From: an uncultured Campylobacter sp. | GTDB lineage: Bacteria; Campylobacterota; Campylobacteria; Campylobacterales; Campylobacteraceae | Length of the DNA stretch: 64,000 nt | Reading direction: 5' to 3' | Assembly (NCBI RefSeq): GCF_938045405.1 | Contig: NZ_CALIMW010000057.1 | Location: 2,312-66,311 of the forward strand | In this document: positions 5,304-60,124 of the stretch, one piece after another | Position numbering within the stretch: position 1 is the first letter of the stretch | Layout: each line of letters begins with the position of its first letter | Notes under the pieces: model-generated | What the model saw: only the letters and a program-made list of their open reading frames with translations | Database searches by the model: none | Told to the model about the DNA's origin: nothing | Program-made: the position numbers and the translations under genes

Positions 5304-6208
5304 TATTTAAACCTTTCGATCTGGTGTTGCACGACATTTGCGATCTCCTGCCACGATACGTTAGGCTCCAAGGTTGAGATATTTTTGAAATTCTGCGCGT
5401 TCCAGCTCATAAAATTTGCAGGATCAACGCTTTGAGCCAAAAACCTAACTTCGTAATGCAAGTGCGGACCGGTGCTGTAGCCGGTGTTACCGCTATAGCC
5501 GATGAGATCGCCCTTTTTAACCCAAGAACCGGGCGTTACGACCGCGGAGCTAAGGTGGCCGTAGCGGGTCTCAAAGCCGTAATTGTGCGATAGAATCACT
5601 AAAATTCCATATCCGCTGCCGCTACCACCTGCAAACTGCACGAAGCCCTCTGCCGTCGCAAACACCGGAGTGCCCTCGCTCGCTCGCAGGTCGATGCCGT
5701 GGTGCATCCTCATAACGCCACTGATTGGATGAGTGCGCATCCCAAAAGGGCTAGTAACGCCGCGATACTGCATCGGAAGGCCGTTAGGCACGGCGCTAAG
5801 GATCACGCTCGCCGTTTTTTCGCTAGCTGCGATGTGCGCGCCGGAGCCCTTTTTGCGCTCCTTTTTCATCTCATTCATCGCAAGCATTACCTGGATATCA
5901 CTATCCAGCCCGCCTCCATCGTCTTCGCGTCCGTCCAGCTTGGCAAGCACCTCCTCATTTTTGCCCTCAAGCGCGATATTTTGCTCTTTTAGCGCGAGAT
6001 TTTCGGCGTATAGGGTTTTGTTTAGCTCTTTTAAATTTGAACGGTCGCTCGCGAGTTTAAATATCGCAAAAAACAAAACAAGCAGAAAAATTACAAAAAA
6101 CGCGGATAAAATTTTAAGTTGAAATCTAAAATTTTCGCCAAAATACAGCGTCTTGGTGCCAAAGTGATCGCTTAGGGTAAGTTTAGTTTTAGCCACGGCG
6201 CGCCTCAA
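5303..6208 (-). CDS. M23 family metallopeptidase (LytM-domain peptidoglycan endopeptidase) with N-terminal TM helix and coiled coil
   Basis: HHGIDL ... GNTGYSTGPHLHYEV zinc-binding motifs of peptidase M23. N-terminal hydrophobic helix and heptad-like region. Confidence 0.85.
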   Translation of the reverse strand: MRRAVAKTKLTLSDHFGTKTLYFGENFRFQLKILSAFFVIFLLVLFFAIFKLASDRSNLKELNKTLYAENLALKEQNIALEGKNEEVLAKLDGREDDGGGLDSDIQVMLAMNEMKKERKKGSGAHIAASEKTASVILSAVPNGLPMQYRGVTSPFGMRTHPISGVMRMHHGIDLRASEGTPVFATAEGFVQFAGGSGSGYGILVILSHNYGFETRYGHLSSAVVTPGSWVKKGDLIGYSGNTGYSTGPHLHYEVRFLAQSVDPANFMSWNAQNFKNISTLEPNVSWQEIANVVQHQIERFK

Positions 6209-7874
6209 GCCATAAAATGAAATTTTCTACCAAATGAAACGAGCCAAAAACCAAATACTCCTCGTCCGCTCTAAGCTCGCCGCGAAACGGCGAATGCGGA
6301 ATTTTAAGCGCGTCAAGCGCACGGGTTATCGCCTCTGCCGCCATTTCGCGATCCGCAACCTCGTAGTTAAAGATCTCCACGCGCTCTACCACGGGCGCTA
6401 AAGTCCGCAGCACAGCAGCTACGTCCTTATCGGCAAAGGCGTTGTAAATCAGCACGATCTTTCTGCCCCTGTAGATTTCGGTAATTTCACGGGCGACTTG
6501 CTGCGCCGCAAGCTCGTTGTGTCCGACATCCACGCATAAATTTGGCGCCAAAACTTCCATCCTGCCGCGTAAATTTAGAGGCGGCAGCTGTGAAATTTCA
6601 AATTTCAAATTTAAAAATTTCATCGCGGCAAGCGCTAGGGCTAAATTTGAAATTTGAAATTTAGGTAGATTATTGCACGCGCAAAACTCCGCGATCTGCG
6701 CTTGCTCGCTCTTGCTTAAAAGCTCTGCTGCAAACCTCAAATGAGTTCCTTTTTGCTCTGCGATCTGCTGCGCGATACGAAGCGGAACCTCGCTCATCTC
6801 ATCGCTTAAAATCGCCTCCTTATCCATCGTAATGAGCTTGGTGTGGGCGATCTGCTCTAGATTTTGTCCTAGCATGCCTAAATGATCGGTGCCGATCGGT
6901 GTAAAAAGCGACAGCGTGCGTCCAAAGCTCGACGTAGCGTCAAACTCGCCGCCCATCCCAGCCTCGATCACGCAGTAATCGCAATCCCTAAAAAGCACTG
7001 CCGCCGCAAGAGTGAGATACTCGAAATACGACAGGCTATCTTTAAACTCCGCGGGCAAGCTCTCTTGCAAAAACTCATGCGCGAAATCAAGCTCCTCATC
7101 CGTAGCATCGCGCCCTAGCGAAATGGGAAGCGAGCTTTGAGTGGATTTAAAATTTGATCTTAGCTGAGATTTAAAATTTTGCTCTGGCGAGAATTTTAAA
7201 TTTTGCTCAGACGGCGATTTGAGATCTTGAGAATTCCATAAATTTTGTGTAGAAGTAGAATTTTGCGCGATGAAATTATGCTTGCTACAAAAATTTTGCA
7301 TGGTATAAACGGAGTTCTGCAGGGCAGAATTCTGCTCACCATGCGAATCCTGCATGGTGATAAAATCCTGCGTGGTGGAATTTTGCAAATTAGAAATAGA
7401 AATTTGAGAGGCGGAATTTTCTCTGTTCGCAAAATTTTGCATCTTTATGGAATTTTGTTTTTCCGTAAAATTTGGCGCCAAAGCGGAATTTTGCTCGTTT
7501 TTAAAATTTGAAGCGTCGGAATTCAACGCAAAAACGGGGTTTTGCGCGATCCGTCCGCCTAGATAGATGCGCTCGTTGAGCCTAAAAACGTGCGGGCTGG
7601 TGTAGTGCCCTACGCTAAAGCCCGCTGCGGCGATCGCGTTAGCCAAAAACCGCCCGGTGCTACCCTTGCCGTTGGTGCCGATGATCTGAATGACATTTCT
7701 GAGCGGAATTTTATCTTTAATGGCGGCATATGCCCGCGGGAAGCGCTCGTAGTCGATTTTTTTGTAATAAATCGGGCGATTTTGCAAAAATTCTTTAATG
7801 CTGCGCCCGCTCAAGTCTGAATCCCCTAATCGCAAGCGCCGAAATAAACTCGTCAAACGCCTGCGCGGAGGCAT
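6189..7874 (-). CDS. folC: bifunctional folylpolyglutamate synthase / dihydrofolate synthase FolC carrying a ~145-aa in-frame low-complexity (QNS/QNF-repeat) insertion
   Basis: Mur-ligase motifs IQIIGTNGKGSTGRFLANAIAAAGFSVGHYTSPHVFRLNERI. 561 aa, versus about 380-430 aa for typical FolC. The insertion spans about aa 105-250 (nt ~7127-7562). The true start may be the TTG near 7811, because the track ATG at 7874 overlaps the upstream lipoprotein gene by 80 nt. Confidence 0.8.
   Translation of the reverse strand: MPPRRRLTSLFRRLRLGDSDLSGRSIKEFLQNRPIYYKKIDYERFPRAYAAIKDKIPLRNVIQIIGTNGKGSTGRFLANAIAAAGFSVGHYTSPHVFRLNERIYLGGRIAQNPVFALNSDASNFKNEQNSALAPNFTEKQNSIKMQNFANRENSASQISISNLQNSTTQDFITMQDSHGEQNSALQNSVYTMQNFCSKHNFIAQNSTSTQNLWNSQDLKSPSEQNLKFSPEQNFKSQLRSNFKSTQSSLPISLGRDATDEELDFAHEFLQESLPAEFKDSLSYFEYLTLAAAVLFRDCDYCVIEAGMGGEFDATSSFGRTLSLFTPIGTDHLGMLGQNLEQIAHTKLITMDKEAILSDEMSEVPLRIAQQIAEQKGTHLRFAAELLSKSEQAQIAEFCACNNLPKFQISNLALALAAMKFLNLKFEISQLPPLNLRGRMEVLAPNLCVDVGHNELAAQQVAREITEIYRGRKIVLIYNAFADKDVAAVLRTLAPVVERVEIFNYEVADREMAAEAITRALDALKIPHSPFRGELRADEEYLVFGSFHLVENFILWLEARRG
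7127..7562 (-). repeat. in-frame tandem repeats of ~gaatt(t/c)tgc units (encoding QNS/QNF) inside folC
   Basis: More than 20 imperfect repeats of g/aaatt(t/c)tgc, visible on the + strand at irregular 12-30 bp spacing. Stop-free in the folC frame. Confidence 0.8.
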
Positions 7875-23279: not shown

Positions 23280-23999
23280 ATGAAAAAAATCGTATTTTTG
23301 ATCCTGCTTTTCGCAGCCGTTGCGCTCGCGCTTTATGTTACTTCGCGCGTAAATCCAAATCTTTTCGCCGAAATCAAAATCCTAGGCGCACTACTAAACG
23401 CCACGATTTTCGGCGTCGCGCTCATCGCCTTAGCGATCGGCGAAAAGGAGCTCGTGCGCTTTCCGTTTCTTACCGCCTCGCTACTGGCGCTGTTTTCGGG
23501 ACTGGTAGAGGGCGTGCTGCTCTTCGAAAACCGCTACTACATCGCGATCACGGCGGCAGCGTTCGTCGCCTTCGTCTTTTATCTGCAGATAAGGCACAAA
23601 AGATTTTCAAACAAAGCTTATAAAAATTCTGCGAACGAAGGCTCTAGAAATTTAGATGAGAGCGCAAATTTAAAAGACGCGGATTTCGGCGGCGCAAAAG
23701 AGGCGCAGGAGCTGCAAAATAAAAGCGCCGCGGCGGATGAAATTTTAAACTTTAAAAGCGGTGGCGAAATTTCAAATTCTCAAAGCGAGGATGAAATTTT
23801 AAATTCTAGTGGCGATCTCGGTGAAAATTTCGCGAGCGGCGCCGATGAAAATTCTACGCATCGCGCTGATGAAAATTCCGACGAAAATTTTAAAATTTTA
23901 AACGGCGGCGCGGGCGAAGGTAGCGCGGACGAAAATTCCGTGCAAAATTTCAATCAGGATGGTGAAAATTCCGCGCCCGGCGCAAGGCGCGATAGATGA
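23280..23999 (+). CDS. membrane protein with C-terminal acidic ENS/ENF/EIL low-complexity repeats, hypothetical
   Basis: 239 aa. About 4 TM helices, then about 120 aa of D/E/N/S repeats encoded by gatgaaaatt-type units. ATGA-coupled to the next ORF. Confidence 0.5.
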   Translation: MKKIVFLILLFAAVALALYVTSRVNPNLFAEIKILGALLNATIFGVALIALAIGEKELVRFPFLTASLLALFSGLVEGVLLFENRYYIAITAAAFVAFVFYLQIRHKRFSNKAYKNSANEGSRNLDESANLKDADFGGAKEAQELQNKSAAADEILNFKSGGEISNSQSEDEILNSSGDLGENFASGADENSTHRADENSDENFKILNGGAGEGSADENSVQNFNQDGENSAPGARRDR

Positions 24000-25584: not shown

Positions 25585-26937
25585 TTGGATAATCTAATAG
25601 CACAATGCAGCGAAAGGCTCGACGTTTTTTTAAGCTCGCAGCTTGGAATTTCGCGCAACCAAATATCAAGCCTGATCAAATCCGCAGCGGTCAGAGTGGA
25701 CGGCGCGGTGCAAACTAAGCCCGGCTACAAACTATCTGCAGGCGAGCTCGTGCACATCGACTACCCCGCGCCTGCGCCGCAGCAAACGAGCGCGGAGCGG
25801 CTGAATTTCGACGTTAAAATTTTATACGAGGACGATGATCTGCTCGTGGTAAATAAGCCCGCGGGCCTTACCGTCCACCCCGCCGCAAGCGTCAAAGAAC
25901 CCACGCTCGTGGACTGGCTCAAGTCTCGCGGCTATCTGCTTTCCACGCTCGGCGGCGAGCTTCGCGCAGGCATCGTGCACCGCCTTGATAAGCTTACCAG
26001 CGGCGCCCTGCTCGTCGCTAAAAACAACGCCGCGCATGCCGCGCTATCGGCACAGCTAAGCGATAAGAGCATGGGGCGGATATACCTCGCGCTCATCGAT
26101 CTGCCGCTGAAAGAACCCTGCGTGATCGAGCGCCCGATCGCTCGCAACCCAGCAAACCGCCTAAAAATGGGGATCGTACCCGGCGGGCGCAACGCAAAGA
26201 GCGCGTTTTATGAAATTCTAAGCGGCACAGAACTAACGGAGCTTCAAAACTCCGCCCAGAAGTGCGATGAAATTTTAAGTACGGGCGCGAGTACGGCTGC
26301 GGGCAAGAGCGCGGGCATGGATGAAATTTTAAACGACTATGCAGGCGCGGACAACGCGGACGAAATCTCAAATAGCTGCATGCAGAGCGCGGATAAAATT
26401 TCAATCCAAAGCGCAGATAAAATTCCAAGCAGCCGCGCGGGCAACGCAGGTAAAATTCCAAACAATCTCGTAGATAGCGCAGATAAAATTTTAACCGCCA
26501 AAATGAGCGCGGATCAAACCCGCACCGCCCGTCTCGCCGAGAATAAATTTTTAAATTTTAAAAATCCCGCTCAAAACTATAAGTTGCCGCCGATAAACCT
26601 AAAGAGCTTTAATCTCGTCGCGGCAAAGCTCTTCACGGGTCGCACGCATCAGATCCGCGTGCATTTAAGCTCGATAAATCGGCACATTTTGGGCGATCAT
26701 TTATACGGATTTAAGAGCGAAAACGCTAAAATTAGCAGGATTTTGCTCCATGCCTATTTGCTCTATTTCATCCATCCGCGAAGCGGCAAAGAGGTGAAAA
26801 TATGCGCGGGCTTGCCGAGCGAATTTCTAAATTTTACGACAAATCAAAAGGTAAAGGATGAAATTTATGAAAAAATTTTACCGACTAACGTTGAGCGCTA
26901 CTTTAGCGATATTAGCGGGTGGCTGCGCTATGTCTAG
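25585..26937 (+). CDS. rluD: 23S rRNA pseudouridine synthase, RluA/RluD family, with a ~125-aa in-frame low-complexity insertion
   Basis: S4 domain N-terminus. Catalytic HRLDKLTSG motif. C-terminal QIRVH motif. 450 aa versus about 300-330 aa typical. The insertion spans about aa 215-340 (nt ~26227-26605), made of DEIL/ADKI repeats. Confidence 0.85.
   Translation: MDNLIAQCSERLDVFLSSQLGISRNQISSLIKSAAVRVDGAVQTKPGYKLSAGELVHIDYPAPAPQQTSAERLNFDVKILYEDDDLLVVNKPAGLTVHPAASVKEPTLVDWLKSRGYLLSTLGGELRAGIVHRLDKLTSGALLVAKNNAAHAALSAQLSDKSMGRIYLALIDLPLKEPCVIERPIARNPANRLKMGIVPGGRNAKSAFYEILSGTELTELQNSAQKCDEILSTGASTAAGKSAGMDEILNDYAGADNADEISNSCMQSADKISIQSADKIPSSRAGNAGKIPNNLVDSADKILTAKMSADQTRTARLAENKFLNFKNPAQNYKLPPINLKSFNLVAAKLFTGRTHQIRVHLSSINRHILGDHLYGFKSENAKISRILLHAYLLYFIHPRSGKEVKICAGLPSEFLNFTTNQKVKDEIYEKILPTNVERYFSDISGWLRYV
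26227..26605 (+). repeat. in-frame ~27-33-bp periodic GCGSRGATAAAATTY repeats inside rluD
   Basis: Units such as gcgatgaaattttaagt, gcgcggataaaatttcaatcc, gcgcagataaaattccaagc, gcaggtaaaattccaaac and gcgcagataaaattttaacc. Confidence 0.8.
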
Positions 26938-27535: not shown

Positions 27536-29632
27536 TTGCCGAATTTCATAACCCAAAGCGTGAGCCTGCCGCGGCTGCCGATTAAGCTCGGCGAGACCGA
27601 GTTTTTAGAGACGGCACGCGGTAGAAATTTAACGCTCGTGCGAACCAAAAGCTTTGATAGCGAGTTTTTTATCATCGTTAAGCCCAGCGGCGACAAAGTG
27701 ATAGTAAAGGGCGAAAAGATCACCAAGCCCGCCAAGATCGGCCATCTGCAACGAGCGCTCGAAATTTTTAAAGAGCGCTTCTGCGGGCAGATCATCTCGC
27801 AGGCGTTTGCCTACAAAGACAGCTCACTTACCGAAAAAACGCCGCTGATTTTGGACGAGAATGAAATTTTATCCCTCGTAAAAAGCTCTAAATTTAATAA
27901 AATTTTCATCGAGATCGGCTTCGGCTCAGGCAGACACCTGCTTCATCAAGCGCGCTCAAATCAAGACGCGCTGCTAATCGGCATCGAAATTTACAAGCCC
28001 GCGATCGAACAGGTCGCAAAGCTAGCGATCCGCGAGGGGCTGCAAAACATTGCGCTGATTGCCACCGACGCACGGGTTTTACTAAGCCTGCTTCCCGCAG
28101 GCTGCCTGCAGCGCGTATTTTTGCACTTCCCCGTGCCGTGGGACGACGCGCCGCACCGCCGCGTCATAAGCGACGAGTTCGCCTCGCAGATCGCACGCAC
28201 GCTCGGGCGCAGCGGCCGCTTCGAGCTTCGCACCGACAGCGAGGAGTACTTCCTCTACGCGATGCAAAAGCTCTCGCCCTACGTTCAGCACAAAGCGGGC
28301 GAAATTTCGCACTTCAAAAACCGAGACGCCGCCGTAGCGAGCAAATACGAGGATAGATGGCGCAAAATGGACAAAAACATCTACGATCTGATCTACGAGA
28401 ACAAAACCGCGGGCGTGGACGAACCGCAGCAGTTTGAGATGGAATTTTTAAAATTTGACGCGGCGGCAATCGCGCGAAATTTTAAAAATTCTACCTTCAA
28501 AGGCGAGGATTTTTTCGTGCATTTTGAGGAAATTTTTTACTTTGACGCGCAGAAAGACTTGGACGCGGATGGGGCTTGCGCGGAGCGCGGCGTAAATTTA
28601 AGCGGCGCGGGCGAAGTCATGAACGACGAGGCTACAAATTTGGACGCAATGCGCGGCAAAAATTTAACCGAGCGCGCAAGCGTGGATGAAATTTCGTCAG
28701 GCGGCGGCAAAATTTTAGCTACGACACCCGCGGATAAAATTTCAGCTTGCACGAACGCTACGCAAATTCTAAAAAAAGCAAGCGTTCTACCAAATACAAA
28801 CCGCGCGGATGAAACAGGCGTAAATTTAAACGAGGATCGCTTGAGCGCAAACGGCGTAAATTTAGCAAGCGATGTTCCTGTCGCGGTAAGCGCTAAATTT
28901 AGCCGCACTGCCCCTGGCGAAAAACGCGCTTTAGCCTGCGAGCAGATCGTAACAAAGCAAGGTACGCAGATAAACAGCGCAGCCGCCTCAAGCGATACAC
29001 CAAAAGCAAATAACCCGCTCGCAACAATCGACGCAAGCAACGCGCTAAATTCTATCGGCGCAGAGGGGGCGCCTGCAACTATCGACGCGACAGGGGCAGG
29101 CAATACACCCACAACGATCGATGCAATAGATGCGAGCAATGCGTTGAATGCGGACGGCTCGTTCGCAGCAGCCCGCACAAACGAAGCAAACGCGGCGCTA
29201 AACATAAGCGCAGTACCTTGCAAAAATGAATCGCAAGCTGAATTACAAAATAAGTCAAACTCTATCAAATCGCAAGTCGGTCGCCGAAGCGAGCCAGGCC
29301 ATGACGAGCTACAAGCCGAACACCAAGGCAAATTAAATCGTGCCGAGCAGCAATGGCAAGGCAAACCAAGCTGCGTTAAGTCGCAAGACGAATGGCAAAG
29401 CGAACCAAGCTGTACCGAGCAGCAAAACGAACGGCAAAGCAAGCCATGCGCCGCCGAGCCGCAGGACGTGCTAATCCTGCTTTCGCTCGGGGCATTCGAC
29501 TTTCCGCAGCAGTGTTTCATCCGCGCAAACGCAAGCGGCACGCGCTACTTCATCCGCCGCCCGCTTCCTACGCGCGAAAACCACGCGGCACATCAAAAAA
29601 TTTCGGAGATATTTTCACAATGGCAGAGATAA
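27536..29632 (+). CDS. trmB: tRNA (guanine46-N7)-methyltransferase TrmB with an N-terminal extension and a ~360-aa low-complexity C-terminal extension
   Basis: TTG start. SAM-MTase core IEIGFGSGRHLL ... LHFPVPWDD, about aa 110-340. Residues about 340-698 are repeat-derived low complexity (VNL/KNL/DEI units). The stop overlaps ftsE by 13 nt. Confidence 0.7.
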   Translation: MPNFITQSVSLPRLPIKLGETEFLETARGRNLTLVRTKSFDSEFFIIVKPSGDKVIVKGEKITKPAKIGHLQRALEIFKERFCGQIISQAFAYKDSSLTEKTPLILDENEILSLVKSSKFNKIFIEIGFGSGRHLLHQARSNQDALLIGIEIYKPAIEQVAKLAIREGLQNIALIATDARVLLSLLPAGCLQRVFLHFPVPWDDAPHRRVISDEFASQIARTLGRSGRFELRTDSEEYFLYAMQKLSPYVQHKAGEISHFKNRDAAVASKYEDRWRKMDKNIYDLIYENKTAGVDEPQQFEMEFLKFDAAAIARNFKNSTFKGEDFFVHFEEIFYFDAQKDLDADGACAERGVNLSGAGEVMNDEATNLDAMRGKNLTERASVDEISSGGGKILATTPADKISACTNATQILKKASVLPNTNRADETGVNLNEDRLSANGVNLASDVPVAVSAKFSRTAPGEKRALACEQIVTKQGTQINSAAASSDTPKANNPLATIDASNALNSIGAEGAPATIDATGAGNTPTTIDAIDASNALNADGSFAAARTNEANAALNISAVPCKNESQAELQNKSNSIKSQVGRRSEPGHDELQAEHQGKLNRAEQQWQGKPSCVKSQDEWQSEPSCTEQQNERQSKPCAAEPQDVLILLSLGAFDFPQQCFIRANASGTRYFIRRPLPTRENHAAHQKISEIFSQWQR
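28556..29470 (+). repeat. repeat-derived low-complexity tract forming the trmB C-terminal extension
   Basis: Recurring GC-rich block + (g/c)taaattta/gaaattt units. Both the sense frame and an antisense frame (28537..29541) are stop-free. Confidence 0.75.
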
Positions 29633-32493: not shown

Positions 32494-32886
32494 GTGGGCA
32501 GGGGAAATTCTAAATTTAGCGGATCTTGCGAGGATGCCGAAAGTTTAAATTTAAGCGGACAGAATTCAGGCTGCGATTTAAATTTAGATGAGCAGAATTC
32601 TTTAAAAGAGCAGAATTTCGCCACTTCAAATTTGAACGATGAAAGCTCTGCGGCGGCGTTAAATTTAAACAGTCAAAGCTCTGCCGCCATAGATATTGCC
32701 TCTACGTCAAATTTAGATAGCGAGAATTCCGCCACGGGAGCCACTGCATTAAATTTTAAAAATAAGAATTCCGCGACGACGGACATCATAGCGACATCAA
32801 AAACGATGGCGGGCGCCGCAAAAACAGGAAGCTACAACGAGCGTCGTAGAAGTAAAAACGACGAAAACAGCGCAAAACGATATTGA
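32494..32886 (+). CDS. low-complexity ORF (QNS/ENS/LNL repeats); possibly a translated repeat array rather than a genuine gene
   Basis: 130-aa ORF made entirely of cagaattc/aaattt repeat units. No domain. Starts 4 nt after the envC stop. Confidence 0.25.
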   Translation: MGRGNSKFSGSCEDAESLNLSGQNSGCDLNLDEQNSLKEQNFATSNLNDESSAAALNLNSQSSAAIDIASTSNLDSENSATGATALNFKNKNSATTDIIATSKTMAGAAKTGSYNERRRSKNDENSAKRY

Positions 32887-34346: not shown

Positions 34347-35354
34347 TTATCGCTCATTATTCGATATTTGTTTTATTGTTTTCTCTTTTTCATCGTAGTA
34401 GTATCCCATATAACTCAAAAGCATATTTCTGTAGCCCAAGATATATTTAAAGCTCTTATCTATCAATATGATATAAAAATCATATGTTGCATAATTATCT
34501 CTATATTTGAAAGCTATTTTATTGAATGGGCGGCTAGTGTCTATATCGCTATTTTCATAAATTTTATAAGTCATGCAAAATTCTTCCAAATTATTTTTAA
34601 AATTTCCATTTTCTTCACCATTAAGTAGTTTATATAAATTAAGAAATAATAAATTTATAGGGATTATGAGCGATGCTTCGATATTATTAATATCTATATT
34701 TGGATCTTGTAGATCTATCTTATACTTATAAACTCCATAATTTATTATTGCTTTATTCATGTCGCTTTCGCTAGCAAAATATAGATTGTATCTTAGATCC
34801 CCGTTTTCTAAAACCAAACTTTCCTTATCTTCCCAAGGATATACGACTTCGGTTTTAAAAATTTCTTTATCTATATAGGTCTCGGCATCTTGTATCGCCT
34901 TGCCGTTTCTACAAATTTTTGAGCCCAAATCCATAAGATAATCTAAATTTAGCCTTTTATCTATCTTGTAAAATTCGCATTTATCATCGGGGCGTTTATC
35001 CCCATGACATTTACTATGGACGCGTGTTAAATAATCTTTTAATTCTAGATCTTCAATATCTTCTTCGATGTGAAGATTTTTATATTTCATTCGGATATCA
35101 TCTATTTTTTTAGCGATTTTTTCTTTAGAAAAGTTTTCGCTTTCATGCATCTTTTTAAGCATACACTTTAACGCTCTATCTTTAAGCTGTATATCCGTAA
35201 GATTGCCATCTAGATCGCATACCCATTCATATGGATCGGTTTCAATTTTTTCGGCTGAATTTGGGTATTTATACTCCGCGATAATCGAAAGTATCGCGCA
35301 CAAAGCGCATATTATTATGATGAAGACCAAGCACAGATAATATCTCGTTTTCAA
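34347..35354 (-). CDS. AT-rich orphan membrane-anchored protein, hypothetical
   Basis: 335 aa. TTG start with AGGAG 8 nt upstream. N-terminal TM anchor. Very Lys/Asn/Tyr/Ile-rich, with gene GC far below neighbours. No recognisable domain. Confidence 0.55.
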   Translation of the reverse strand: MKTRYYLCLVFIIIICALCAILSIIAEYKYPNSAEKIETDPYEWVCDLDGNLTDIQLKDRALKCMLKKMHESENFSKEKIAKKIDDIRMKYKNLHIEEDIEDLELKDYLTRVHSKCHGDKRPDDKCEFYKIDKRLNLDYLMDLGSKICRNGKAIQDAETYIDKEIFKTEVVYPWEDKESLVLENGDLRYNLYFASESDMNKAIINYGVYKYKIDLQDPNIDINNIEASLIIPINLLFLNLYKLLNGEENGNFKNNLEEFCMTYKIYENSDIDTSRPFNKIAFKYRDNYATYDFYIILIDKSFKYILGYRNMLLSYMGYYYDEKEKTIKQISNNER

Positions 35355-37781: not shown

Positions 37782-38408
37782 ATGATATTTTTATATTTGA
37801 TATTCGGCATAAATCTTTTACTGTTTGGGCTTGCTATTTTAAAAAGCATGGTTTTTAAAAGCAAAGCCTCTTATAAAACCGTGCAAAAGGGCGCCTGGCT
37901 CATACCTCCTAGCCCCATAGCAAAAACTATGCTTATCGTGCTATTTTTATCCTGGGGTTCGTTGGTGGCGTTTGATGAGCCTTGGATAAAAACAACAAGA
38001 GGCGGAGGTAAAGTTGCATGCTTTGATGCAAACGACCCTTTATGCGTAGGCGGGTATATGCAAAGAGGCGGCGGCGAGACCGCACTCGTGATCGTAATGG
38101 GTCTTGCAATGATGTTAATTGCCATACTGCCGTTATCCGAAAAGGGCGTCATCATAGATAGCCGCACCGCAAGGAAAGAGTGGAGATTTTTATCGTTTAA
38201 ATTTAGCACAAAGATCGATATAGAAAACGCCCTTACGGAGAAAGGGATGAGGGGCGAGATGCCGATTTTGATAGTAGAAGACGGGCAAAGCGGAAAAAAT
38301 TTCACGCTCTCATTCCCATACGCACAGCAAGATATAAAATTTATTGAAGCAGAGATAAGAAAGAGGCGCTATAAGATGATAAAATCAAAAGAGGCAAGAG
38401 TCCCTTAA
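37782..38408 (+). CDS. membrane protein, hypothetical (tandem paralogue B)
   Basis: 208 aa. Same architecture as 37050..37739: SYKTVQKG vs SYKTVYRG, CFDANDPLC vs CFYTHDKVC, EWRFLSFKFSTKIDIE vs EWEVLPFRHTEKIYFDE. Confidence 0.5.
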   Translation: MIFLYLIFGINLLLFGLAILKSMVFKSKASYKTVQKGAWLIPPSPIAKTMLIVLFLSWGSLVAFDEPWIKTTRGGGKVACFDANDPLCVGGYMQRGGGETALVIVMGLAMMLIAILPLSEKGVIIDSRTARKEWRFLSFKFSTKIDIENALTEKGMRGEMPILIVEDGQSGKNFTLSFPYAQQDIKFIEAEIRKRRYKMIKSKEARVP

Positions 38409-38633: not shown

Positions 38634-38635
38634 CC

Positions 38636-38679
38636 AAGCCCAACGCAAGCCCAACGCAAGCCCAACGCAAGCCCAAAAA
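38636..38679. repeat. 11-bp tandem repeat caagcccaacg, about 3.6 copies
   Basis: The sequence ccaagcccaacgcaagcccaacgcaagcccaacgcaagcccaaaaaag is directly visible. Confidence 0.9.
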
Positions 38680-38806: not shown

Positions 38807-39706
38807 ATGCAGATGAATAAAAGTTTGGAATTCAGAGCCGACATCGGAATGCTATTCGTTGCGATCGCTTTTGGGCTCGGGTATCTGCCCACCTCGCAGG
38901 CGCTTGCGAGCAACAACGTCTTCGTGCTGCTATTTTGGCGCTTTTTCGCCGCGAGCATCATCGCAGGCGCGATATTTTTCCCAAAGCTCAAAGCCATAAC
39001 TTTGCGCGAGATCAAGCACGGCGCGGTGCTTAGCCTGTTTTTATTTGCGGGCTTTACGTCGCAGACCTTTGCCTTTAAATTTGCGCAAAGCTCCTCCGTG
39101 GCGTTCATCATCGGCCTAAACGTCGCGCTCGTACCCTTCATCGCCGCGGCGCTGTTTAGGCACAAAATTTACTCCTACGCCTACGCGGGCATCGCGCTTG
39201 CGATCGCTGGGCTCTACCTCATCGGCGACACGCAGCTAGGCCTGGGCAAGGGTGAAGCGCTGGCGCTAGTCTGCGCGTGCGCGTATTCGTTTCACATCGT
39301 GCTGACCAACCGCTTCGTGCAAAGCTGCGACGTAGCGGGCATCGCCTACGTACAGATCCTCTGCCTAAGCGCGCTTTGCTGCTTCGCGGCGATCTTTTTT
39401 GAAAGAGTCAGCATCGTGCCGGTGATGGATAAAAGCTTTTTCGTCGCGATGGCGGTGATCTGCCTGCTGGGAACGGTTTTTGGCTTTTTTGCGCAGGCCT
39501 TGATGCAAAAATACACGACGCCCGTCAAAACCGCTCTGTTTTTCACGCTCGAGCCCGTAACGGCGGGCATCATGGGCGTATTCGTGGGCGGCGAGAGGCT
39601 AAGCGTGATGCAAATTTTAGGCGCGGCGCTCATCCTATCTGGCGTTTTAATAAGTGAGATTGGAAGCTACCTCAGCGCAAAACGGAGCAGATCCGCAGGC
39701 GCTTGA
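38807..39706 (+). CDS. EamA/DMT-superfamily transporter
   Basis: 299 aa with 10 predicted TM helices in two EamA-like halves. Confidence 0.8.
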   Translation: MQMNKSLEFRADIGMLFVAIAFGLGYLPTSQALASNNVFVLLFWRFFAASIIAGAIFFPKLKAITLREIKHGAVLSLFLFAGFTSQTFAFKFAQSSSVAFIIGLNVALVPFIAAALFRHKIYSYAYAGIALAIAGLYLIGDTQLGLGKGEALALVCACAYSFHIVLTNRFVQSCDVAGIAYVQILCLSALCCFAAIFFERVSIVPVMDKSFFVAMAVICLLGTVFGFFAQALMQKYTTPVKTALFFTLEPVTAGIMGVFVGGERLSVMQILGAALILSGVLISEIGSYLSAKRSRSAGA

Positions 39707-58103: not shown

Positions 58104-58955
58104 TTAAATTCTAAAGCTTTGCCTACCAGCCGCCTCTTCAGGATCTGAATTATCATCGCGCTCCTGCGAGCGCCCGCCGCGCAGCTCCTGTCTGGGCTGC
58201 ACGCCAAAGCCCTCCAAGACCTTGCCTAGGCTTTCATTAGCGTCCTTGATGATACCTTGCAGGCTTTCGCCCATCTGATCAAGGTTTTTGCCCGCCTCGC
58301 GCGCCGCCGCCTCGCCCTGCTTTAGCAGATCCTTGGTCCTATCGGCGTTGCGAGCGGCGAAATCGTTCAGCGCTTCGGGCGCCTTTTTCTGCAAATTTTG
58401 CAAGGCCTCGCCCAAAACTTTAGCATCGTTTGCAAGCTCGTCTATCGTGGAATTTAGATCGGATTTTTGCTTGCTCTCAAAGCCCTGCGGCACGGAATTT
58501 TGCGTGGAGCCTTGCATAGAATTTTGTGTGGAGCTTTGAACGGAATTTCGCCCCGAGCTATCCGTGCTTTTATTAAAATTTCGCCCTTGATTACTCGCGC
58601 TAAAATTCTGTTCCGATCGTGCGCTTTGTTCGCGATTTTGCGCGTCTGATCCGCCGTCGCAGCCGCTTAAAATACATATCGCGGCTAACGCCAAAGTAAA
58701 ATTTCGCGCCGCGTTTATAAAACTAAAATTTCTAGCGCGACCCGCTGAGATAAAATTTAATCCGCCCTGCGCCGAGATAAAATTTCGCCCGCTGCCGATC
58801 TTTATAAAATTCTGCCTAACGTATGCCGAAGTAAAATTTCGCCCGCCATCCGCCGAATCGAAATTTCGCGACCGTCCAGAGCCCGGCTCGCCGCTAGCTC
58901 TGATAAAATTCTGCGCCAAATCCCGTCCGCACCCTTTCAAAATTCGTCTTTTCAA
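58104..58955 (-). CDS. putative lipoprotein with coiled-coil C-terminal region; the N-terminal ~90 codons are a 27-bp-periodic repeat array and may be untranslated
   Basis: The track ORF starts at TTG 58955, 12 nt after the cinA stop. Residues 1-90 are RNF/QNF 9-aa repeats. A lipobox-like ALAAICILSGC|D sits at about aa 89-99 (Cys at nt ~58661). The C-terminal 150 aa is helical and charged. Confidence 0.45.
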   Translation of the reverse strand: MKRRILKGCGRDLAQNFIRASGEPGSGRSRNFDSADGGRNFTSAYVRQNFIKIGSGRNFISAQGGLNFISAGRARNFSFINAARNFTLALAAICILSGCDGGSDAQNREQSARSEQNFSASNQGRNFNKSTDSSGRNSVQSSTQNSMQGSTQNSVPQGFESKQKSDLNSTIDELANDAKVLGEALQNLQKKAPEALNDFAARNADRTKDLLKQGEAAAREAGKNLDQMGESLQGIIKDANESLGKVLEGFGVQPRQELRGGRSQERDDNSDPEEAAGRQSFRI

Positions 58956-58960
58956 AATCC
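58690..58960. repeat. 27-bp-periodic tandem array (gAGATAAAATTTCGCCCGC-type units), about 8 copies, between cinA and the lipoprotein gene
   Basis: The aaatt cores fall at about 58698, 58735, 58752, 58779, 58806, 58833, 58860 and 58906. The central five are spaced exactly 27 bp apart. Confidence 0.85.
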
Positions 58961-58966
58961 GCTCCT

Positions 58967-60124
58967 TTAAATTTCATCTCTCGCAGGCGCGCTCGGAAGC
59001 CGCCCGAAAAACAGATCGCTTCTAAGCTTCAAAAGCAAGCAGATAGCGATATCGGCGCTTTGTTCGCGGATATAGTTTCGATCGCCTTTTAGATGAAATT
59101 CCCCGACGATCTGTTTGCCGCCCTGCTCCTTCGCGCCGATAAAGACCGTCCCTACGGGCTTTTGCGCGCTTCCGCCGCCGGGGCCTGCGATACCGCTTAC
59201 TGCAAGAGCGAAGCTTGCCCCGCTGCTTTGTAGCGCGCCCTCCAGCATCTCGCCCACGGTTTGTGCGCTGACCGCGCCGTAGCGCGCGAGCGTATCTTCG
59301 CCTACGTTTAGCCAGAGATTTTTTATCTCGTTGGCGTAGCTTACGAGCGAGCCGTCAAAAACGTCGCTCACGCCCGCGACCGCGCCGAATTTTGCGGCGA
59401 TAAGCCCTGCGGTGCAGCTTTCGGCGAAGGTTATTTTAGCGCCTATCTCGCGCAGTCTATCCACCACAAAGCCCATAAAATCGCCGCCTTCGATGTAGCA
59501 GCTCTCATAATACTTGCCGACGCTTTGCAAAAACGCGTCCAGCGCTCCGAATTTCATCGCACTGGCGCGCACGAGTAGCAAAAAGGAGCCGGGTCTGCTG
59601 ATCGTAAGCGAAATTTTATAGCTAATCGCAAGGCTTTCTAGGCGCTGCTTTACACTTTCGTATTCGCAGTCAAAAAGATAAAAGCTCTCGCCCGCGCTCG
59701 GCGCGTCTTGAAGGATCGGCGGCAGGCTCTGCAAGCAAAGAGCCTTGATCACGTTTACCGAGCAGCCTCTGACGTTTAGCAGGAAGCTGTTTTTCGCCAC
59801 CGTGCGCGCCATCGAGGGCGCTAGGGTTTCTCCATTTTTCAGCTCAAGCGAATCGAAAGAGAGCGTCGATAAAATTTTACCGACGACCGCGTAGGCGGAG
59901 TTTGCCGCAAAGATCGTGATAAAATCGTACGAATCGATCATCTTTTCAAGTGCGAAGGGCAAAACCTTATCGTTTTCGCTTAAGAATTTCAAATCGTCGA
60001 TCCGCCCAAAAACTCGTTCGTAGCTGCGAGATATATAGCTCATCAAAGCCGCGTCGTAGCGGATCTCCTCGCCGATTACAAGGATGATATTTTTCATAAA
60101 GACCCTCATTAAATTTTCGCACAT
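58967..60124 (-). CDS. cinA: CinA-family protein (C-terminal nicotinamide-nucleotide amidohydrolase PncC-like domain)
   Basis: 385 aa. C-terminal ITFAESCTAGLIAAKF ... GAVSAQTVGEM matches the CinA_C domain. N-terminal MoCF-biosynthesis-like domain is divergent. Confidence 0.75.
   Translation of the reverse strand: MCENLMRVFMKNIILVIGEEIRYDAALMSYISRSYERVFGRIDDLKFLSENDKVLPFALEKMIDSYDFITIFAANSAYAVVGKILSTLSFDSLELKNGETLAPSMARTVAKNSFLLNVRGCSVNVIKALCLQSLPPILQDAPSAGESFYLFDCEYESVKQRLESLAISYKISLTISRPGSFLLLVRASAMKFGALDAFLQSVGKYYESCYIEGGDFMGFVVDRLREIGAKITFAESCTAGLIAAKFGAVAGVSDVFDGSLVSYANEIKNLWLNVGEDTLARYGAVSAQTVGEMLEGALQSSGASFALAVSGIAGPGGGSAQKPVGTVFIGAKEQGGKQIVGEFHLKGDRNYIREQSADIAICLLLKLRSDLFFGRLPSAPARDEI

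Follow-up and report, generated by a model that had tools for sequence, protein, structure and literature searches.

How does an rRNA-modifying enzyme come to hold about 124 extra residues immediately ahead of one of its conserved motifs, and what keeps such a segment in frame? The question is raised by the RluD-like (RluA-family) 23S rRNA pseudouridine synthase gene at positions 25585-26937 (plus strand, 450 aa) of a 64-kb stretch of DNA from an uncultured Campylobacter sp., hereafter the window. A first-pass annotation had described the gene as an RluD-family synthase whose catalytic core is split by repeat units, and had suggested that these repeats spread by a mechanism that tolerates, or is selected for, preservation of the reading frame. 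Our results point to a different origin, to which we assign a probability of about 0.6: the insert would be a lineage-specific, length-hypervariable and largely disordered low-complexity array, produced by local turnover of units in a permissive surface loop and fed by a drive for the DNA word AAATTY. The segment looks like a by-product of events at the DNA level and not like a new protein domain.

The catalytic core of the enzyme is intact, as had been claimed. Motif II, HRLD (aa 132-135, nt 25978-25989; all features of this gene are on the plus strand), carries the catalytic Asp135 at 25987-25989 and is part of an intact HRLDKLTSG at 25978-26004, and motif III, GRTHQIRVH, spans aa 352-360 (nt 26638-26664). 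In an alignment of 115 sequences the columns H132, R133 and D135 of motif II, as well as G352, R353, H355, Q356, R358 and H360 of motif III, are invariant. The HRLD and GRxHQIR motifs, together with the profile scores given further below, place the open reading frame (ORF) in the RluA family.

Alignment locates the insert at nt 26221-26610, in agreement with the earlier estimate of 26227-26605. Relative to E. coli RluD (PDB 1v9f), residue 210 of the window enzyme aligns to 212 and residue 346 to 224, so that about 124 residues are extra, close to the 125 first reported. The spacing between HRLD and GRxHQIR is accordingly 220 aa; among about 140 diverse RluD representatives, most have 96-97 aa. 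The extra residues include units of the DEIL/ADKI type and contain no stop codons. An AlphaFold2 (AF2) model built on the alignment of 115 homologues (mean predicted local distance difference test, pLDDT, 82; core above 90) places the insert in a beta-hairpin turn ahead of motif III, between predicted strands at aa 205-212 and 343-349; it replaced a single-sequence AlphaFold prediction that was uninformative (pLDDT 33.6). The first of these strands, KSAFYEIL (nt 26197-26220, pLDDT above 90), is the last core element before the insert, and its DNA already holds one AAATTC (26213-26218). The core fold resumes with the second, NLVAAKL (nt 26611-26631, pLDDT 95), which aligns to E. coli RluD from residue 224 onward.

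Three parts can be told apart within the insert. A conserved N-terminal flank (aa 213-244, nt 26221-26316, SGTELTELQNSAQKCDEILSTGASTAAGKSAG) is kept in all 49 alleles described below, and a conserved C-terminal flank (aa 308-342, nt 26506-26610, SADQTRTARLAENKFLNFKNPAQNYKLPPINLKSF) in nearly all of them. Between the two lies a variable unit array (aa 245-307, nt 26317-26505), delimited by the whole-unit insertions and deletions (indels) of the allele alignment, by pLDDT and by five direct-repeat families (D1-D5). The description of the insert as about 380 bp of repeat units thus holds for a part of it only: the units are there, and both flanks are non-repetitive and conserved.

Each array unit has 6-13 codons, with GAY-RAA-ATT-YYA (D-E/K-I-L/S/P) at its centre and one AAATTY (RAATTY) hexamer. 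Seven GAYRAAATYYYA-type units occur in the insert, at 26266, 26320, 26359, 26392, 26416, 26449 and 26482, and eight RAATTY sites fall within 26270-26558. Site spacings in inserts are 18, 24, 30, 33 and 36 nt. Among themselves the units are 63-85% identical, their spacers having diverged. Tandem Repeats Finder detects a 33-bp tandem repeat at 26410-26490 (2.5 copies, 75% matches; SADKIPSSRAG / NAGKIPNNLVD); most other alleles lack one of its copies. An antisense ORF of 122 aa with EFYLR/KFYPR repeats (26093-26461, minus strand) crosses the insert; it is most likely no gene but a side effect of the palindromic repeat core.

Does the insert work as a protein? It could be a functional module, that is, a disordered linker or docking segment with a helix that tunes RluD activity, localisation or contacts during ribosome assembly, its length variation being adaptive. 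The AF2 model predicts with confidence a helix at aa 214-237 in the N-terminal flank, where the block mean of pLDDT passes from 94 through 92 to 75 over aa 211-240, and the conservation of the flanks across the alleles would fit such a role. Beyond that helix the model predicts disorder: pLDDT stays below 50 over aa 249-326 and at 35-46 in the variable part, before it climbs to 66 and then to 95 towards aa 340 in the C-terminal flank. The insert has a net charge of -2, which makes it unlike an RNA-binding segment, and a Pfam search found no intein or other domain in it.

We then compared the window allele with 48 full-length alleles from genomes that GTDB ranks as separate species in the C. 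gracilis-like clade. The insert is present, with an open reading frame, in 49 of 49 genomic alleles. Its length ranges from 89 to 247 aa, next to an N-terminal core of constant length (212 aa) and a C-terminal core of about 108 aa; the window carries a 'short' allele, and the best 120 protein clusters extend from 437 to 567 aa. Alleles differ from each other by whole short units, with the flanks conserved and the middle variable. Head-to-tail units divisible by 3 and copy-number polymorphism among close relatives qualify the segment as a coding tandem repeat (variable number of tandem repeats, VNTR, or minisatellite). Nucleotide divergence of the core genes in the clade has a median of 4.8%. 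Insert length shows no correlation with core distance (Spearman about 0), indicating that it changes fast or recombines freely. The insert appears to be under relaxed constraint: its pooled ratio of nonsynonymous to synonymous polymorphism (pN/pS), taken from six non-independent pairs of equal-length alleles only, is 0.47, compared with 0.13 for the core.

The contigs of three loci (L047, L050, L052) begin at residues 213-227, inside or beside the array; with two further loci (L054, L055) included, matches begin at residues 213-227 or 330. Short-read assemblies thus break at the arrays, and the allele lengths taken from metagenome-assembled genomes (MAGs) need caution. Contigs that end at the array also speak for an assembly artefact or a decaying pseudogene. 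Against this, the insert recurs at one and the same place in over 100 independent assemblies of different studies, always with an open frame and intact motifs, and the low pN/pS of the core reflects purifying selection; together these observations rule the explanation out for practical purposes and leave it a negligible probability.

We next consider the DNA word at the centre of the units. AAATTY is a subset of RAATTY, and the word statistics that follow cover the 64-kb window only. RAATTY occurs at 619 sites, or 9.7 per kb at 49% GC, and is denser in non-coding DNA (20.1 per kb) than in coding DNA (8.2 per kb). No hexamer is more frequent in the window than AAATTT (423 sites, as compared with 156 for TTTAAA, 25 for GAATTC and 9 for AATATT). 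In genes we count 461 RAATTY sites, against 186 ± 9 after shuffling synonymous codons within each gene, an excess of about 2.5-fold, and AAATTT is the most over-represented hexamer in these genes (303 observed vs 85 expected, z = 32.7). One-mismatch variants such as AAGTTC, AGATTC, AAGATT and AAACTT are depleted. The word therefore behaves like an uptake sequence, in that it exceeds codon and amino-acid expectation and its near misses are avoided. Codon pairs are biased towards AAATTY in all three frames: K-F pairs are written AAA-TTY in 98 of 100 cases, E-I pairs GAA-ATT in 59 (13 expected) and N-L pairs AAT-TTA in 58 (9 expected).

The same preference is seen within the RluD inserts. Across the alleles, RAATTY reaches 20-30 sites per kb in the inserts as opposed to 7-9 in the core, and 681 of the 757 insert sites are read in the frame xRA-ATT-Yxx. 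K/E-I codons in the inserts are AAA/GAA-ATT 623 times, AAA/GAA-ATC nine times and AAG-ATx never; ATC is the preferred isoleucine codon of the window, yet it is nearly unused in the insert motif. Synonymous minority codons make up 0.75% at the motif codons and 8.8% elsewhere in the insert (Fisher p = 7e-32). Synonymous sites are thus more constrained inside the hexamer than outside it, which argues for a constraint at the DNA level. The hexamer is maintained at the DNA level, both in the insert and across the genes of the window.

These data bear on whether the array is a plain neutral coding minisatellite, in which the units resemble each other through recent duplication or gene conversion and the hexamer is unselected. 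The 33-bp tandem repeat, the alleles separated by whole-unit indels and the apparently relaxed constraint are all in line with such a history. Homogenisation, however, would keep whole units alike, while here the spacers have diverged and the synonymous positions of the hexamer are nearly invariant. Neither would a neutral history explain the excess of the hexamer over the synonymous-shuffle expectation in ordinary genes, with its one-mismatch variants depleted, or the convergence of unrelated inserts in other lineages on the same hexamer (see below). We thus regard a purely neutral minisatellite as rather improbable.

The recurrence of inserts at one site supplies a further line of evidence. 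Arcobacter (328 aa) and C. jejuni, C. coli and C. upsaliensis (321-325 aa; 321-322 in C. jejuni and C. coli) are without the insert. In other Campylobacter lineages, inserts fall exactly between the AFxNxL strand and the NLIAAKLFTGRTHQIR strand, that is, in the same hairpin: in P0311 (about 8 extra residues), P0304, P0303, P0124, P0308, P0302, P0132, P0130, P0301 (a protein of 765 aa) and C. troglodytis P0310 (611 aa). The peptides that these inserts encode (ENS, LNS, LNL, KNS, DKF) are unrelated to DKIL. In P0124, P0130 and P0132 (loci L077-L079), whose affiliation with Campylobacter rests on synteny of the fn3 gene, on a LIAAKLFTGRTHQIR signature and on named neighbours such as C. troglodytis, the inserts contain 30-68 RAATTY sites per kb, compared with 4-9 in the cores, and mostly read them in the frame xxR-AAT-TYx. 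Separate Campylobacter lineages have independently filled one loop with one DNA word in another frame, and we regard this as convergence.

This result also affects the protein-module explanation. That explanation can draw on an insert pN/pS below 1 and on the retention of the insert in every clade genome examined. Nevertheless, the peptide motif changes between lineages (DKIL vs ENS/LNS/DKF) while the DNA hexamer stays, the tighter synonymous constraint lies inside the hexamer, insert length is uncorrelated with phylogeny, and the orthologues of C. jejuni, C. coli and Arcobacter function without the segment. Taken with the predicted disorder and the net charge, these findings make an adaptive protein module distinctly unlikely.

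Arrays of similar appearance are present elsewhere in the window, in intergenic regions as well as in several unrelated genes. Over the whole window GCGSRGATAAAATTY, with up to 2 mismatches, is found 37 times (4.4 ± 1.9 expected). The first-pass annotation considered the RluD units identical in type to the other arrays; they have the 6-8-nt core AAATTY in common and nothing beyond it. Its statement that this is the second housekeeping enzyme of the window with such an insertion was correct, as both FolC and TrmB carry comparable segments.

In the FolC gene (6189-7874, minus strand; TIGR01499 passed), about 135 aa of QNS/QNF/QNL units are inserted after the P-loop region, at about nt 7140-7541. 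This insertion is the densest RAATTY cluster of the window, with 48-72 sites per kb read on the minus strand in the frame xxR-AAT-TYx. The TrmB gene (27536-29632, plus strand; PRK14121 equivalog passed) has a low-complexity insertion of about 310 aa, roughly at nt 28550-29490, which separates the methyltransferase domain from the conserved C-terminus. The insertion opens with an RluD-like part (VDEISSGGGKILATTPADKIS) and continues in a different composition, with TIDA and QSEP/QSKP units; across related loci the segment measures 151-438 aa and is always open. A membrane protein without a Pfam match (23280-23999, plus strand) ends in a tail of about 115 aa (about nt 23650-23999) with DEIL and ENS/ENF units, and the same DNA word is thus read in two frames within one gene. 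Two further ORFs are a 130-aa frame of nearly pure QNS/LNL/ENS low complexity (32494-32886, plus strand) and a frame with RNF/QNF N-terminal repeats upstream of a lipoprotein-like signal, ILSGC (58104-58955, minus strand; array at 58393-58974). These two may be intergenic arrays that stay open by chance and not real coding sequence. The encoded peptide therefore differs from host to host (DKIL/DEIL in RluD, QNS/QNF in FolC, DEIL with ENS/ENF in the membrane-protein tail, RNF in 58104-58955), so that the common denominator is the DNA word and not a peptide or an element.

Could the arrays still be copies of a small in-frame mobile element, in the style of a Rickettsia palindromic element (RPE) or a miniature inverted-repeat transposable element (MITE)? 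Their presence in several unrelated genes and in intergenic DNA invites this view, and RPEs show that selfish DNA can lie in frame within housekeeping genes (PMC10969869). As in the RPE case, in-frame non-homologous segments sit in conserved enzymes, apparently at tolerated surface positions. RPEs, however, are discrete units of about 100-150 bp with a family consensus, a palindromic structure and a conserved peptide, none of which the window arrays have. A family consensus of at least about 100 nt is missing: the longest blastn matches of the insert to the remaining 63 kb are 13-19 nt long and all centred on AAATTT. Terminal inverted repeats and a palindromic fold are likewise missing, the only inverted matches being imperfect ones of 10-22 nt that come from the palindromic hexamer itself. 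The predicted RNA/DNA fold is not unusual (z = -0.83), and the flanks of 618 of the 619 RAATTY sites are near-random beyond ±2, with a weak T at -2 and a weak A at +7. In addition, the encoded peptides differ between hosts, and the alleles differ by single short units instead of by presence or absence of one element. A mobile element is thus largely refuted and very improbable. The proposed frame-aware spread of the repeats is likewise unsupported, given the short matches, the random flanks, the lack of terminal inverted repeats and the different frames in different hosts. A structured RNA or an intron was rejected on the same fold score and on the absence of any Rfam match at E ≤ 1.

How, then, might the array have formed and stayed open? 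Within the reading that we favour, units would be gained and lost through slippage during replication or through unequal recombination at the short cores that they share, in a hairpin loop that is presumably permissive in structural terms. Variants with a frameshift or a stop codon would be purged, as motif III lies downstream; purifying selection on this essential motif can account for the preserved frame, and no special mechanism is needed. The array would act as a 'sink', to which a genome-wide drive for AAATTY adds copies at a small cost to the protein, and permissive loops, protein tails and intergenic DNA would all become sinks of this kind.

The nature of the drive is the most speculative step. 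Campylobacter species share a conserved methylase that targets RAATTY (PMC13436318, PMC10046745, PMC4294202), and methylated RAATTY is needed for DNA uptake in C. jejuni (PMC13436318, PMC10046745); preferential uptake of motif-bearing methylated DNA is known only for that species (PMC10046745). Another known effect of uptake sequences is that they reshape proteomes at positions of low conservation (PMC2817400). Based on these reports, it is plausible that Campylobacter RAATTY m6A (N6-methyladenine) methylation by a CtsM / M.CjeI-type orphan methylase, together with a methylation-dependent DNA-uptake system, provides the drive.

The arrays might even be selected devices in their own right, namely clusters of methylated RAATTY for uptake or recognition. 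GC-rich Campylobacter lineages would deposit them in intergenic DNA, in C-terminal tails and in loops of proteins that are permissive, and they would tag housekeeping loci for the uptake and recombination of self-DNA. Such devices would explain why the RAATTY density is similar to that of C. jejuni (9.7 per kb in the window and about 8.4 in this AT-rich species, provided that both strands are included in the published count of 27,514), why the hairpin was refilled independently and why insert alleles are shuffled relative to the core-gene tree. We put this forward as a tentative possibility, with the odds against it.

AAATTY could also be kept for another DNA-level reason, such as A3T3 curvature, a nucleoid-protein site, or a promoter-like or replication signal, with the arrays as site clusters. 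The lead of AAATTT over TTTAAA, GAATTC and AATATT is compatible with this, and so are the weakly palindromic site flanks (T at -2, A at +7), the density peak of 20 per kb in non-coding DNA and TAAAAT, which gives -10-like minus-strand matches inside the insert. However, spacing histograms of AAATTY sites show no helical phasing, the spacings in inserts being simple codon multiples of 18-36 bp. A scan of the insert for internal promoters and terminators gave 5 matches, all weak, vs 2.2 expected, and RAATTY is already known as a conserved methylation target in the genus. We therefore consider such a signal unlikely, though within reach of the data.

Several points weigh against the sink model and its proposed drive. 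In the synonymous-shuffle test AAATTT is strongly enriched, AAATTC moderately and GAATTC not at all. The preference is thus for a narrower word than RAATTY, one that could have a purpose other than a methylase or uptake system. The pN/pS values have the narrow basis given above, and the allele lengths come from short-read MAGs in which several contigs break at the array, so some of them may be wrong. Finally, a pN/pS of 0.47, below 1, the conservation of both flanks and the helix predicted with confidence at aa 214-237 suggest that part of the insert may have a role at the protein level.

We also compared the array with known systems. The uptake signal sequences and DNA uptake sequences (USS/DUS) of Haemophilus and Neisseria (Findlay & Redfield 2009, PMC2817400) are likewise short words that are over-represented genome-wide and also inside genes, occur in several frames, bias the encoded peptides and prefer poorly conserved or permissive protein positions. 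In contrast to USS/DUS, the window word has only 6-8 nt (AAATTY) and is palindromic, and it forms dense in-frame tandem arrays and long hypervariable insertions that are not described for USS/DUS. Moreover, the sequence alone is not enough for uptake in C. jejuni, which depends on methylation of RAATTY. With coding minisatellites and low-complexity insertions the array shares degenerate head-to-tail units of 3n nucleotides, copy-number polymorphism, predicted disorder and signs of relaxed constraint. It differs from them in that the unit core is an over-represented hexamer kept at synonymous sites, and in that independent lineages rebuilt an insert in the same loop from the same hexamer in another frame. 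A literature search, limited in coverage, returned no earlier account of AAATTY/RAATTY arrays or of low-complexity inserts in Campylobacter proteins.

Taken by itself, the RluD insert is a modest curiosity; the interest lies in its motif-driven, frame-independent and recurrent origin. If our account is true, a 6-nt word under genome-wide drive builds large hypervariable insertions in essential enzymes, repeatedly and in different frames, and the coevolution of uptake sequences and proteomes extends from single tripeptides to whole disordered segments. If the array is merely a tolerated minisatellite, it is an ordinary curiosity. The arrays offer a cheap test of RAATTY as an uptake or self-recognition signal outside C. 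jejuni. On the practical side, they break up short-read assemblies and drive up the number of protein clusters (the RluD gene has hundreds of them at 90% identity), and they could be used as strain-typing markers for gut and oral campylobacters of the C. gracilis group.

The identity of the enzyme is supported by several profile and fold comparisons. The product passes TIGR00005, the RluA-subfamily model of NCBIfam, with 224.1 bits (cut-off 192.7), and PF00849 (PseudoU_synth_2) matches it in two stretches (E = 4.6e-27, 95.5 bits vs a cut-off of 26.8). An N-terminal S4 RNA-binding domain covers aa 10-56 (nt 25612-25752; PF01479, E = 2.9e-9; AF2 pLDDT above 90). RluD heads the sequence matches in the structure database, with the N. 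gonorrhoeae RluD entry just above that of E. coli, and in Foldseek RluD (1v9f/2ist/7bl5) is the best fold match, ahead of RluC and RluA. With an S4 domain, and with RluD closest among the RluA-family paralogues, the protein is a probable RluD orthologue. It shares with E. coli RluD, the 23S pseudouridine 1911/1915/1917 synthase (PDB 1v9f, 2ist, 7bl5), the order of S4 and RluA-family catalytic domains as well as the HRLD and GRTHQIR motifs, and its relatives are named 23S rRNA pseudouridine1911/1915/1917 synthase by the Joint Genome Institute (JGI). The best-scoring equivalog is also that of RluD (NF008385), at 155.6 bits below its cut-off of 351; the low score is due to the insert splitting the match and to the divergence of Campylobacterota. 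Because the score falls under the cut-off, we infer the substrate specificity of this RluD-like enzyme.

The ORF begins at a TTG as listed, and in one database record the start lies 7 codons farther upstream. Its product is 100% identical to proteins labelled 'RluA family pseudouridine synthase [uncultured Campylobacter sp.]'; among named genomes, a C. gracilis MAG is the nearest. The source of the window is a gut Campylobacter related closely to C. gracilis. Compared with E. coli RluD, the window enzyme is also longer at the C-terminus, by about 35 aa, and this extension runs into the next gene: the last 80 nt of the RluD gene (26858-26937) are shared with the start of a downstream lipoprotein gene with an fn3 domain. 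Two distant loci (L078, L079) show a comparable overlap and gene order downstream of RluD.

Elsewhere in the window, a perfect 11-nt tandem repeat, CAAGCCCAACG (38635-38676, 3.8 copies, 100% matches), lies between the genes 37782-38408 and 38807-39706. This repeat differs from the AAATTY arrays; it might be a contingency or phase-variable tract. The ORF at 34347-35354 (minus strand) has a GC content at third codon positions (GC3) of 0.29, as opposed to 0.5-0.7 in its neighbours; it is thus compositionally foreign and was possibly acquired horizontally.

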